From a virus (Duplodnaviria; Heunggongvirae; Uroviricota; Caudoviricetes): 35,298 bases of DNA. The notes under the pieces are model-generated. The model did no database searches and was not told the DNA's origin. It saw only the letters and a list, made by a program, of their open reading frames with translations. Location: positions 143,646 through 178,943 of the IMG/VR virus record IMGVR_UViG_3300037454_000603, one strand, 5' to 3'. Positions 31,477 to 35,298 of the stretch are shown piece by piece; within the stretch, counting starts at the first letter, position 1, and every line of letters starts with the position of its first letter. The position numbers and the translations under genes were made by a program.

Positions 31477-31546
31477 GGTCTGCAGTTAGCTATGACTAAC
31501 TGTGAACAGTTTGTTAACTATGAGATATAGTCAAAAATGCTTATAA

Positions 31547-31620
31547 GAACAGATGTTCTTACAAGATGATAGTTGAATAGTTGTTCACATGAATAGTTGT
31601 TCACATGAACAGTTGTTCAT
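31547..31620. repeat. 16-bp tandem repeat / GAAC-N4-GTTC (SOS-box-like) cluster
   Basis: GAACagatGTTC at 31547; TGAATAGTTGTTCACA x2 (31574, 31590); then TGAACAGTTGTTCA (31606). Confidence 0.7.
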
Positions 31621-31952
31621 GTGTTCACATTGACTACATCTCACTGTTTACAAACTGTTCATATTTGGTTAGTTAAGGCAAACTAACTATGAACACAATG
31701 TTAACAATGAAATAGTGTAATTGTGAACGAAGTGTGAACTATGAAATAGTCAAGCGAGCTGCGACTCGCGCTGAGGAAATATTACTGACGAGCTGCGAAT
31801 TATTTAAGCCCGATATTATTTTTTATTTCTTAGAAAAAAATGCGACCCGTTTATGTTTTGGTTATCCCTCTATTTCATTATTAACAATGAGGTCATAATT
31901 AAAAGATCAAACTAATTAAAAGATCGAATATATAATATTTACATTTTATTCA

Positions 31953-31981
31953 TTGACAAAATAGGCAAAATATAGTATAAT
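31953..31981 (+). promoter_or_regulatory. Consensus sigmaA promoter
   Basis: TTGACA-17-TATAAT. Confidence 0.9.
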
Positions 31982-32028
31982 GGTTACAATGAAAGAACAA
32001 CCTAAGACCTTTGAAAGGACGTGTCATT

Positions 32029-32337
32029 ATGTTGATGAACAGAAAAGACTTTTATGAGGAAATCGCAGATTATACTGGTTGGTACGAGGATAGCGAGTTT
32101 TACAACTGGTTCACCCGTTATTATGGGTGTGAACCCGTTGATATCCACGTCGAGGGATATGATTTTGACCGCGATGTGAAGTGGACTCCAAATCTAGAGG
32201 AAGCGTATCAAGAGGCACTGGCAGAACTCATAGAACAGTATGAAGATGAAGACGACTATGAAAGTAATATGCCGTGTGATTTTTCGGGATATTGTTCGGG
32301 CACTAATTGCCCTAACTTTTATAAATGTCAGGGTTAA
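32029..32337 (+). CDS. Small, very acidic early protein with C-terminal Cys cluster (102 aa)
   Basis: ATG 32029 after TTGAAAGGACGTGT; D/E/Y-rich; ends CDFSGYCSGTNCPNFYKCQG. Confidence 0.85.
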   Translation: MLMNRKDFYEEIADYTGWYEDSEFYNWFTRYYGCEPVDIHVEGYDFDRDVKWTPNLEEAYQEALAELIEQYEDEDDYESNMPCDFSGYCSGTNCPNFYKCQG

Positions 32338-32369
32338 AAAGTAGAGGGGTCTAAACCCCTTTACTTTTT
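32336..32369 (+). terminator. Intrinsic terminator
   Basis: AAAAAGTAGAGGGGT-ctaa-ACCCCTTTACTTTTT. Confidence 0.8.
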
Positions 32370-32599
32370 GCTTTGATATTTGAACAATGGTTCATATGAA
32401 CATAGAAAATTATGAACCCCTTATGAATACTGAAATATAGACGGTGCCGCGAGACCATGAACGATTTGTTAATGATGAAATAGAGGAACTATTTCTATGT
32501 TAACAGGGCGTTCAAATATGAATAAGGCGTAAATTAATTGACCCCTTTTAACTTAAAACAAATTCACATAATATTATTTTATTGTTTACAGAATATTCA

Positions 32600-32628
32600 T
32601 TGACTTTTTCTTCAAAGTATAGTATACT
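32600..32628 (+). promoter_or_regulatory. sigmaA promoter
   Basis: TTGACT-17-TATACT. Confidence 0.82.
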
Positions 32629-32687
32629 TATATCAAGGAAAGGGGAAAGGAACAAACCCCCTTAAAGACTTGAAAGGACGTGTCAAT

Positions 32688-32951
32688 ATGAAAATAACTA
32701 AAAGCGTACTGAGAATGAAGATTGGTTATCTGAACTATATAACCAACAGAGAAGACCCCAAAAACGAGGACGGATATTATGCTCTTGACTACGGTTACAA
32801 TGGCGTTAAGGTTGTCCTTTGTTCTGCTTATGGCGGCATCACGGCAGAAATGTCACCGAGAGGAACAAAGACCGAAATAGGTATTATTTTGGATAGTATG
32901 ATAATGGTCTACGAAAGAGAGTTAATGAGAGCAAAGGGAGAGTGCGATTAA
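32688..32951 (+). CDS. Small hypothetical early protein (87 aa)
   Basis: ATG 32688 after TTGAAAGGACGTGT; promoter upstream, terminator downstream. Confidence 0.85.
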   Translation: MKITKSVLRMKIGYLNYITNREDPKNEDGYYALDYGYNGVKVVLCSAYGGITAEMSPRGTKTEIGIILDSMIMVYERELMRAKGECD

Positions 32952-32966
32952 TCGCACTTTCTTTTT
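32940..32966 (+). terminator. Intrinsic terminator
   Basis: AGTGCGAT-ta-ATCGCACT followed by TTCTTTTT. Confidence 0.75.
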
Positions 32967-33152
32967 GTCCTTTATCCTATTTCATTGTTCACAATTAGTT
33001 AACACTGTGCCGCGAGACCATTCTAAAATATTGTAAACCAATTGTGAATCTTGAAATAGTATAAGAGGATTTCTGTCTTAATAATTTAGTCTTGTTTATT
33101 TTATTTAAACCCCTAAATGTTAATTAAATATGAACATTGAAATATACCCCGT

Positions 33153-33182
33153 AAAAATGGCGGTCAATTGACCGCCTATTTT
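33153..33182 (-). terminator. Intrinsic (bidirectional-looking) terminator
   Basis: GGCGGTCA-at-TGACCGCC flanked by A and T tracts, at the stop of 33182-33502. Confidence 0.75.
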
Positions 33183-33502
33183 TAAGTCCAATAGACCTTT
33201 TCCATTTCCTCCCAAATTTCATAATCCCAGGGGCAGGAAATCATTTTGTCGAACAGGGGTAACAACTGTTTGAGTTTGTCCCAGTAAACAAGTATGTCGT
33301 CGCGCTTATACTCCGCGCACGCATATATGGCGTCCAGTTCTGACATGACAATCAGAAAAGCCTCATGACCGAAGCCACTTTCGGGCATCATTTTATGGAG
33401 CGACTTTTCTGCATTCTTAAGAGAGGGCAGATAAACGTTCAGGTCGCAGAGGTTAAAGGGGTTGCAAAGTTCGCGAAGGGTATTGATAATAGTATTAGTC
33501 AT
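33182..33502 (-). CDS. Small hypothetical early protein, inverted unit (106 aa)
   Basis: ATG 33502 after TTGAAAGGACGTGT on the minus strand; has its own promoter and terminator. Confidence 0.85.
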   Translation of the reverse strand: MTNTIINTLRELCNPFNLCDLNVYLPSLKNAEKSLHKMMPESGFGHEAFLIVMSELDAIYACAEYKRDDILVYWDKLKQLLPLFDKMISCPWDYEIWEEMEKVYWT

Positions 33503-33552
33503 ATAAGACACGTCCTTTCAAGTCATTGGGGTTGTTCCTTTACTGTATCTAT

Positions 33553-33581
33553 ATTATAGCATAGTTCTCACTTCTTGTCAA
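33553..33581 (-). promoter_or_regulatory. Consensus sigmaA promoter (extended -10)
   Basis: TTGACA-17-(TG-c)TATAAT on the minus strand. Confidence 0.9.
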
Positions 33582-33934: not shown

Positions 33935-33963
33935 TTGACTTTTATTTCTAAATATGGTATACT
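33935..33963 (+). promoter_or_regulatory. sigmaA promoter (extended -10)
   Basis: TTGACT-17-(TG-g)TATACT. Confidence 0.82.
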
Positions 33964-34020
33964 TGTACCATAGAAGAGAGGAAAAGAAAACCTCTTAAAA
34001 ATTTGAAAGGTCGTGTTTAT

Positions 34021-34248
34021 ATGAATATCGAGATTTTAAAGGGCATGGAAAGTTCAATGGCAAGAATACTGGATTTAAATTCAGTAGAAATAACAAAGGA
34101 AACTGCTTTTGGCTATTTAAGATACTGTCTTGAAAATACTCTTGACATGACTATTGAAACTTTAATAACAACGTTCTTAGATAAACCAGACAAAAGATTG
34201 AGAGTACTTAACAGAGTACGCGACGAAATTGAGGATTTAATAAATTAA
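34021..34248 (+). CDS. Small hypothetical early protein (75 aa)
   Basis: ATG 34021 after TTGAAAGGTCGTGT. Confidence 0.85.
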   Translation: MNIEILKGMESSMARILDLNSVEITKETAFGYLRYCLENTLDMTIETLITTFLDKPDKRLRVLNRVRDEIEDLIN

Positions 34249-34279
34249 GACTTATTCAAAATACCTCCATATAATAAGA

Positions 34280-34309
34280 GAGGAAGGACAAAAGTCCTTC
34301 TTCTTTTTT
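34280..34309 (+). terminator. Intrinsic terminator
   Basis: GAGGAAGGAC-aaaa-GTCCTTCTTC followed by TTTTTT. Confidence 0.8.
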
Positions 34310-34473
34310 GACTACATCTCACTATTAATATTTAATTCATAACTTTATGAACATTGAAATAGTTGCACTATCTCACTATTTACATTTTGTTCATATCTTA
34401 CACTATTTCGTCGTTTACACTTTATTCAAAAATAAACTTTTTATTAATAATCACTCAATTTTTGAATTTACTC

Positions 34474-34502
34474 TTGACAAATTGAATTAAATATGTTATA
34501 AT
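34474..34502 (+). promoter_or_regulatory. Consensus sigmaA promoter with no RBS/ORF directly downstream
   Basis: TTGACA-17-(TG-t)TATAAT. Confidence 0.85.
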
Positions 34503-34508
34503 ATAAGA

Positions 34509-34632
34509 GTAGAATAATGATGAACAGTATATGAATATTGTGAACATTTTATTAATAAGTTAAGAATAATTAACTAAAAAGAAAAGAAAACCTTGTGCCG
34601 CGACTCTATCCGCAAGCGGCGCGGCAATTGTT
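34509..34632 (+). ncRNA. Candidate small RNA or long leader
   Basis: Follows the perfect promoter at 34474; no convincing RBS plus ORF; ends in the GC hairpin TGCCGCG...CCGC-aa-GCGG-CGCGGCA. Confidence 0.3.
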
Positions 34633-34708
34633 AAATAATTTAATTAATTAATAAAAGGAGCTAGAGCTGGAGCTAGAAAACATTCACAAATTTTTTACAA
34701 TTTATTCA

Positions 34709-34737
34709 TTGACTTCTATAAGAAAATGTGTTATACT
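34709..34737 (+). promoter_or_regulatory. sigmaA promoter (extended -10)
   Basis: TTGACT-17-(TG-t)TATACT. Confidence 0.82.
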
Positions 34738-34771
34738 ATTTATAGAAAATTAAGAAAGGACGTGTTCTCAA

Positions 34772-34924
34772 ATGAGAAAAGTTTTTACTGTTATTAGTAT
34801 CGTAGGTTACATTCTTTTTATGTGGGCAGTTATAAGTTTTATTGATGTCAATATACATAATAGTGCCTTTATTGAAGAAGATTGTGCTGATTGGAACTTT
34901 TTTAAAATTATTTCAGAAGTTTAA
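34772..34924 (+). CDS. Small single-pass membrane protein (50 aa)
   Basis: AGAAAGGACGTGT leader; MRKVFTVISIVGYILFMWAVISFIDVNIHN...DWNFFKIISEV; below the track length cut-off. Confidence 0.8.
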   Translation: MRKVFTVISIVGYILFMWAVISFIDVNIHNSAFIEEDCADWNFFKIISEV

Positions 34925-34942
34925 AGAAAGAGGTTGAAAAGA

Positions 34943-35113
34943 ATGAAAAAGCAAAATGTTTGTGAAAGAAGATTTAAGTGCCCGACTTGTGGTTATATCG
35001 CGACGGCATTTAAGAAGTCGTCAAGAAGAACTTCAGAAAAGCATTTGAAAAATATGTATTGTCCGTTTTGTAAAAATGAACATAATTTTATTCAGTTAAG
35101 TAGATATGAATAA
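34943..35113 (+). CDS. Zinc-ribbon protein resembling ribosomal protein L33 (56 aa)
   Basis: GAGGT RBS; MKKQNVCERRFKCPTCGYIATAFKKSSRRTSEKHLKNMYCPFCKNEHNFIQLSRYE; terminator follows. Confidence 0.8.
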   Translation: MKKQNVCERRFKCPTCGYIATAFKKSSRRTSEKHLKNMYCPFCKNEHNFIQLSRYE

Positions 35114-35139
35114 GGGGAAGAAATTCCCCTTTAATTTTT
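35112..35139 (+). terminator. Intrinsic terminator
   Basis: AAGGGGAA-gaaa-TTCCCCTT followed by TAATTTTT. Confidence 0.7.
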
Positions 35140-35298
35140 AAACTAATTGTTAATAATGAAATACCTCTCCAATTTCATTGTTAATATTTAGGAAAAGTAT
35201 GAACCCCTTATTAAAATTGAAATGGGGGGGGGCGGATTTAAAAAAAAGAATAGGGGTCATTAAGACCCCTTTTAAATTACCATTCCCAAGGACAAGAT

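Follow-up and report, generated by a model that had tools for sequence, protein, structure and literature searches.

A two-part 26-bp repeat lines the gene-cassette borders of a presumed early block in a TAG-recoded phage

The window analyzed here, a stretch of 35,298 nucleotides, is the last 35.3 kb (positions 143,646 to 178,943) of the 178,943-bp record IMGVR_UViG_3300037454_000603, a phage (genome G000, contig C1) that is TAG-recoded, coding density rising from 47% to 79% when TAG is read as sense, and that has a packaging module of SPbeta type (YonB, YonD, and YonG families are present in the module of its close relatives). Near the right end of the window, small genes alternate with clusters of a 26-bp motif, two TRTKAAY heptamers in 11-bp phase followed by a TGARAT tail. 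A preliminary description of this DNA, made from the letters alone, proposed that the motif forms an ordered lattice confined to the noncoding spacers of the early region, and the counts agree: 26 matches with three or fewer mismatches were found against 1.0 by chance (shuffle maximum, 4), 25 of them within 31501-35223. With a position weight matrix (PWM; ≥14 bits) we recovered 76 sites in a 19.5-kb block, none in the remaining 159 kb of the phage, and 0.13 in Markov shuffles; coding DNA elsewhere, where equally frequent matches would have counted against the lattice, contains none. The features of the window are as follows.

29051-30250, minus strand: TAG-rich gene of 399 amino acids (phrog_5767, "sigma factor"), heading the late/packaging cluster and forming the left boundary of the block
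30574-30602, plus strand: consensus sigma-A-type promoter of the first gene
30660-31205, plus strand: first gene of the block, 181 amino acids, TAG-free
31240-31464, 32029-32337, and 32688-32951, plus strand: cargo genes, TAG-free
31501-31897: cluster 1, motifs at 31501(+), 31638(-), 31688(+), 31722(+), and 31872(-); left edge of the lattice
31953, 32600, 33935, 34474, and 34709, plus strand: consensus sigma-A-type promoters
32411-32516: cluster 2, motifs at 32411(+), 32456(+), and 32491(-); includes a 9-bp tail-to-tail pair and a 45-bp tandem whose linker has GCCGC (32446)
32979-33143: cluster 3, motifs at 32979(-), 33032(+), 33069(-), and 33118(+), between two convergent genes; no consensus promoter was found in it
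33182-33502, minus strand: cargo gene, TAG-free
33553-33581, minus strand: consensus sigma-A-type promoter
33646-33824: cluster 4, motifs at 33646(-), 33679(+), 33716(-), 33766(+), and 33799(+)
34021-34248 and 34772-34924, plus strand: cargo genes, TAG-free
34316-34430: cluster 5, motifs at 34316(-), 34370(-), and 34405(-), with a half site at 34346(+)
34943-35113, plus strand: cargo gene, TAG-free, Zn-ribbon (phrog_1257)
35126-35298: contig-end repeat of about 172 bp, present at both contig ends with one G-run indel
35137-35223: cluster 6, motifs at 35137(+), 35172(-), and 35198(+), inside the contig-end repeat

In relatives the contig-end repeat is single copy and internal, so the window leads without a break from its right end into C1:1. 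Past this join the lattice carries on for 15.8 kb (C1:1-15825) with about 55 further sites outside the window, spanning 31501-50950 in circular coordinates. At its far end lies a 1.5-kb noncoding, A-tract-rich stretch (C1:14950-16480) that holds the last three motifs and tandem repeats of about 20 bp and is possibly an origin, an entry stop, or a packaging signal. Cluster 1 also holds tail-less GTTCACA copies at 31583, 31599, and 31623.

Motif positions 22, 23, 25, and 26 are invariant and the linker positions are free; conservation is highest in the tail and lowest in the outer heptamer. An invariant tail beside free linker bases favors base-specific recognition over mere homology. The core unit is a tail-to-tail pair across a 9-bp spacer, found at nearly every cassette border, convergent ones included (52 of 59 tandem, 34 of 35 convergent, and 30 of 32 divergent borders in six genomes). 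Of 180 pairs from nine genomes, 143 have a spacer of exactly 9 bp, a tally in which homologous pairs are counted repeatedly. The spacer sequence varies, spacers of different junctions being 44% alike, and its consensus is C-rich, mostly in one direction (C 53 versus G 20 in G000). The spacings first described in the window held on remeasurement: tail-to-tail gaps are 9 bp (32456/32491 and 35137/35172) or 11 bp (33679/33716), the half site at 34346 has its tail 9 bp from 34370, divergent gaps are 24 bp in both cases, tandem periods are 34, 33, and 35 bp, and tail-less heptamers lie directly upstream of the -35 elements at 31953, 32600, and 34709. Further copies stand 33 to 35 or 45 to 46 bp outward of the core pair, and the common 45- to 46-bp tandem period carries GCCGC or GCGGC in its linker in 9 of 11 cases. 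This word is enriched throughout G000 (374 copies versus 41 expected from base composition, nine-fold, evenly on both strands) and is thus a feature separate from the lattice; related phages have similar GC-rich words, and we pose as a question whether it is Chi-like or another host-factor word.

About 30 units make up the block; each has its own sigma-A-type promoter and terminator with one or two small genes, and units face in either direction. The motif itself is neither promoter nor terminator; it lies mostly 7 to 57 bp upstream of the -35 element and also at convergent borders. Over 151 promoters in six genomes, motif-to--35 distances peak at 34, 43 to 44, and 54 to 56 bp, about one helical turn between peaks, and the promoter lies on the side opposite the tail; phasing at 11 bp gives a P value of about 0.004 over all G000 promoters; the peaks are inflated because leaders are related by descent. 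The exact inverted-pair pattern had no match in collections of viral contigs and genome contigs, and a relaxed pattern gave isolated matches only.

Relatives were located with the 399-amino-acid gene as anchor, and homologues of the first gene led to eight more arrays in close relatives. All keep the motif, its spacing, and the TGAAAT tail (415 of 475 sites), so the spacing, whose loss in relatives the preliminary description would have counted against the lattice, is conserved. Motif regions are better conserved than genes in the one pair aligned base by base: cluster 1 and its counterpart in relative L082 share 83 to 100% identity per 120 bp, and the genes share 48 to 85%. The cargo comprises 63 protein families in differing order, 9 of them in both orientations, and among close relatives cassettes have been gained, lost, moved, and flipped. 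Presence or absence of whole cassettes, with ends in motif clusters, was seen at about 33670 in the window, where L082 has an extra promoter-gene-terminator cassette of about 450 bp in cluster 4, and at two sites beyond the contig join; some insertions adjoin the spacer, and others map to motifs arranged head to head or to a start codon. One further cassette deletion (L074 versus L075/L076) proved apparent only, a scaffold gap of 100 N's.

Several cargo genes deserve separate mention. A membrane peptide (50 amino acids) and the Zn-ribbon gene (56 amino acids), together at 34772-35113 in the window, and a 5′-nucleotidase-like gene are retained in nearly all family members. Cargo family 14 (C1:2994-3392 and 5456-5857, L001) carries a C-x-P-x-D-x-F...G..IA motif that recalls nucleotide-sponge anti-defense proteins; Pfam gives no convincing match for it. 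Two paralogous winged-helix-like genes also lie within the lattice (C1:4856-5275 and 6938-7345, L001), with two to four copies in several relatives. A short tandem repeat (30314-30360), about 23 bp in the window and 46 bp in L074 (9576-9702), separates the late cluster from the first early gene and explains why the contigs of many relatives break near 30300-30500; we do not take these breaks as a genome end.

We found a promoter-dense block at the same place in seven more distant genomes, where the two halves of the motif have fared differently. G003 keeps the heptamer pair with TGCGAY as its tail, G010 and G019 couple the pair to central palindromes of their own, and G013 has a polar composite with the pair. 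Other words dominate the blocks of G021, G012, and G016, and in G012 and G016 heptamer pairs are absent; the G012 word is GCGCCCGGGCGC, and G021, which comes from a Clostridia bin, has about 50 copies of a palindrome around GTTATATAAC (C1, L134-L141). Tail-less heptamer tracts occur in G000, G003, and G013, and long tail-less runs with an exact 11-bp period stand at one block edge in L011 (8330-8780; G003) and L057 (7581-7710; G013). A conserved 11-bp heptamer half joined to a lineage-specific other half suggests that the element has two reader proteins.

We then compared the heptamer half with host regulator boxes. The sequencing runs that match the phage best are from bovine gut and include a DNA run that is possibly its source; an RNA run contains half of the sequence words. 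Related phages sit in two Clostridia and one Melainabacteria metagenome-assembled genome bins, which we do not accept as proof of host. The nearest named matches of the capsid protein (22 to 47%) are in phAss-1 and in Enterococcus, SPbeta-like, and Clostridioides phages, and DNA-level comparison with annotated phages gave no match. Among 61 genomes of the class of one Clostridia bin, 29 contain the heptamer pair and 14 the reversed pattern (Fisher P = 0.008), and intergenic matches precede genes for NlpC/P60-SH3 hydrolases, SH3, peptidoglycan-binding, HtrA, and S-layer homology proteins, a PstS-type binding protein, a Na/Pi transporter, and dnaN. Envelope and phosphate genes are typical of the WalR and PhoP regulons, and in Bacillus the PhoP box is a direct repeat of a hexamer. 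The phage sites resemble such boxes in their TGTWAA-like repeats of 11-bp period beside the -35 element, and differ in that the second base is often A (TATGAA, TATTAA) and an invariant tail is added. The pair looks like an OmpR-type box, of which it would be a putative member. WalR regulon classes and the WalR box consensus were taken from published work (PMC9210968).

With slightly less than even confidence, we favor a reading in which the 26-bp word is a composite protein-docking site that controls the early block and doubles as a shuffling joint. The two phased heptamers would be bound by a winged-helix protein whose specificity is conserved; the likeliest candidates are a host regulator of the OmpR family (WalR/PhoP-like) and a phage protein that reads the same box. 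The TGAAAT tail, inverted across 9 bp, would be read by a second, lineage-specific dimer, probably phage-encoded. Complexes at both ends of nearly every cassette could control or package the roughly 30 units as one block, first boosting and insulating and then shutting off expression. Every seam offers about 60 bp of similar sequence, so homologous recombination would swap whole cassettes there, and shuffling would be a consequence that needs no dedicated recombinase system. The multikilobase nucleoprotein platform of the preliminary description thus finds partial support, a protein-bound lattice being the best reading; of the roles it proposed for such a platform, host response-regulator sites would apply to the heptamer half only, and operators of a phage early-gene regulator are plausible for the tail, but convergent borders also carry sites (34 of 35), and we found no repressor.

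Several observations weigh against a docking site with these readers. Sites at convergent borders have no promoter for direct regulation, and promoter phasing is not significant over distinct gap values (P = 0.42). A search for MrpR with PF22823 gave no match at E ≤ 1, with the Bacillus subtilis control matching, and a very divergent homologue is possible. Two sets of candidate binders were rejected: the family-17 winged helix-turn-helix protein is encoded in G012, which lacks heptamers, and absent from G013, which has them, and two Rep-like genes with double winged helix-turn-helix domains do not track the motif. The strict Bacillus WalR box (TGTWAH-N5-TGTWAH) fits only 2 of 79 sites and a looser form (TGTNDH-N5-BKBWRN) 5; the PhoP hexamer pair fits 10 and the DnaA box (TTWTNCACA) 1, and a strict WalR, PhoP, or DnaA identity of the sites was rejected. 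Envelope or phosphate genes follow 7 of 22 intergenic heptamer-pair loci versus about 1 of 15 controls judged by eye, a skew that is only suggestive, in genomes of a class that may not be that of the phage's own host.

An unlikely alternative concerns how the DNA enters the cell: the block would be the first DNA to enter, as in T5, and the protein-bound lattice would shield it from the phage's own first-gene nuclease or from host nucleases, pace entry, or provide cut sites (inverted hexamers across 9 bp) for the product of the first gene. It starts from the following feature.

29837-35298: window part of a 21.5-kb GGCC-free zone that is also nearly without GCWGC, GGNCC, GATC, and CCWGG

Between 29837 and 51325 (circular coordinates), GGCC occurs 0 times versus 11 expected (0 versus 10.7 after Markov correction), the next longest gap being 8 kb; GCWGC occurs twice versus 18 expected and is nearly absent from 31792-51044, and GGNCC occurs 0 times versus 9. 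The zone coincides with the lattice and extends about 400 bp beyond its last motif. T5-like phages can be restricted only if the DNA transferred first carries recognition sites, and it is unclear how they spare their own DNA (PMC10644984). Scarce sites together with this precedent make it reasonable to infer that the lattice block may be the DNA that enters first. The site set was chosen post hoc, after G000 had been seen, and with it four of eight genomes are low in the block; G019, G003, and G013 share the scarcity, and G008, G016, G012, and G021 are not depleted. T5 pre-early DNA likewise combines small genes, repeats, and a nuclease gene in one block; T5 repeats, in three untranslated regions (PMC10644984; bioRxiv 10.1101/866236), do not stand at every gene border, and two-step entry is putative for the phage studied here.

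The first gene bears on the same alternative. Its 181-amino-acid product has a PD-(D/E)XK-like motif, with G120, E124, D140, D146, Q155, and K157 invariant, and the E...D...(E/Q)xK residues are unchanged in 39 homologues at a mean column identity of 26%. Homologues occupy the corresponding position throughout the family, and a gene with the nuclease motif opens the block in eight other members; the closest homologue among the distant genomes is in G003, which also has the most similar motif layout. The structural model is confident (predicted local distance difference test score, 93.5), but fold searches with two models returned no structural match, a result that does not establish a new fold; the best hit had a Z of 3.2 (root mean square deviation, 3.6; 90 residues aligned), and no PD-(D/E)XK family member was listed. 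One homologue matches Mrr_cat weakly (E = 0.036). The product is an unproven candidate nuclease or lineage-specific binder, its putative nuclease activity resting on the sequence motif. The site gap supports early entry and is silent on the role of the 26-bp motif.

Rather unlikely is a pure sponge or recruitment array, in which about 150 heptamers would titrate or recruit an essential WalR-like regulator, the tail being incidental, and thereby disturb cell-wall control or activate phage promoters. It would account for heptamer pairs that persist in distant phages and occur in host-class envelope and phosphate promoters, and for the tail-less tracts of three genomes. It needs no fixed 9-bp inverted geometry, however, and predicts neither conservation that peaks in the tail and is lowest in the outer heptamer nor that G012 and G016 run the block without heptamer pairs. 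The chance is slim that the two ideas combine in a two-key "self" mark of the first-entering 20 kb, with an essential host WalR-like protein on the heptamers and, at the tail pair, a rapidly evolving protein of the phage that may be its first-gene product with the nuclease motif; such a mark would protect, pace, or dismantle pre-early DNA, each lineage having its own key.

We consider it very unlikely that the borders are integron-like, site-specific cassette joints with the inverted pair as a recombinase core and a directional 7- to 9-bp overlap. The preliminary description had listed recombination sites among its options, and cassettes do exchange here; inverted arms around an asymmetric, mostly one-way spacer of fixed length at nearly every border, insertions adjoining the spacer, and cargo in both orientations would all suit such a system. 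In 56 junction pairs that share one homologous flank only and are not independent events, however, linkage falls from 0.87 to 0.62 and 0.34 inside the shared motif, to 0.25 in the spacer, and to ≤0.14 beyond. This gradual decay through the roughly 60-bp pair fits spread crossovers rather than a fixed recombinase cut, and thus homologous, not site-specific, recombination, and the insertions at head-to-head motifs or a start codon are likewise unexpected. Neither a tyrosine recombinase (PF00589) nor an MrpR-type protein was matched in the genome, in a search that did not cover serine recombinases or test host Xer-type enzymes; ERF was not found in the genome either.

It is highly improbable that the sites are iterons or a centromere, another early suggestion, and serve a prophage in a plasmid-like state. 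The 11-bp phasing recalls such arrays, and in G000, G019, G008, G012, and G013 Rep-like genes with double winged helices are found close to the block's right edge; the sites, however, are spread, one cluster per cassette, and the main GC-skew switch falls outside the lattice, near C1:89 kb. For the Rep-like gene at C1:92936 we saw separate repeats, about 21 bp long and different in sequence, and no PWM matches nearby, and the Rep-like paralogues have no homologue above 72%, while relatives with the same motif are 88 to 91% alike in the first gene; ParA/B and TubZ/R were not searched directly. As an observation in its own right, the two paralogous Rep/DnaD-like genes of G000 are at C1:19845-20723 and C1:92936-93730, the second near the GC-skew switch (a possible origin) with direct repeats upstream, and the domain is fused to GIY-YIG in relatives; C1 also carries, at 19 to 62 kb, at least six GIY-YIG-type endonuclease genes (N-terminal motif), several adjoining tRNA-like sequence. 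A protein-free homology linker kept by seam recombination alone is just as improbable: spread crossover points and a precedent in T4-type phages (PMC2839356) speak for it, but not the invariant tail, the free linker bases, the fixed 9-bp spacer of dissimilar sequence, or a motif distinct from promoter and terminator alike.

Repeats at gene boundaries have been described before in the early regions of phages. In T4-type phages, repeated intergenic promoter-stem-loop joints (PeSLs) serve gene gain and loss through homologous recombination (PMC2839356, PMC4122927); as here, the early region that holds them is variable and made of small genes whose promoters and terminators are of host type, and our comparison of relatives likewise showed genes between the repeats that come and go, with breakpoints inside the repeats. 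A PeSL, however, is a sigma70-type promoter plus a stem-loop, and when tested the phage repeat proved separate from both, forming an inverted pair with a fixed 9-bp spacer that also stands at convergent borders, with cargo in both orientations. SPBRE, the operator bound by the phage protein MrpR in the SPbeta group (PMC10516654) and a precedent for protein docking, is also an intergenic promoter-region repeat in phages with the same YonB/YonD/YonG module; compared by description rather than by SPBRE sequence, it is 15 bp long at about ten promoters prophage-wide, whereas here 76 sites of 26 bp fill one block and also lie away from promoters, and an MrpR-family repressor was not found. For PeSLs, SPBRE/MrpR, and WalR/PhoP boxes alike, a defining feature was thus tested and does not hold for the lattice. 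The stoperators of mycobacteriophage L5 are 13-bp sites, oriented with transcription, spread genome-wide, and read by a lineage-specific phage protein. They share with the lattice dozens of copies of one asymmetric intergenic site; the phage motif differs in being two-part, paired, and confined to one block. A literature search found no paper describing this repeat, and the phAss-1 paper mentions neither repeats nor motifs. What is new is the two-part design, the family-wide change of its second half, and its match to the restriction-site gap.

Through the lattice, experiments could address how large phages of Firmicutes drive dozens of strong early promoters and later switch them off. It also bears on whether phages exploit the essential WalR system and on how pre-early DNA escapes the phage's own nuclease, a question still open for T5.

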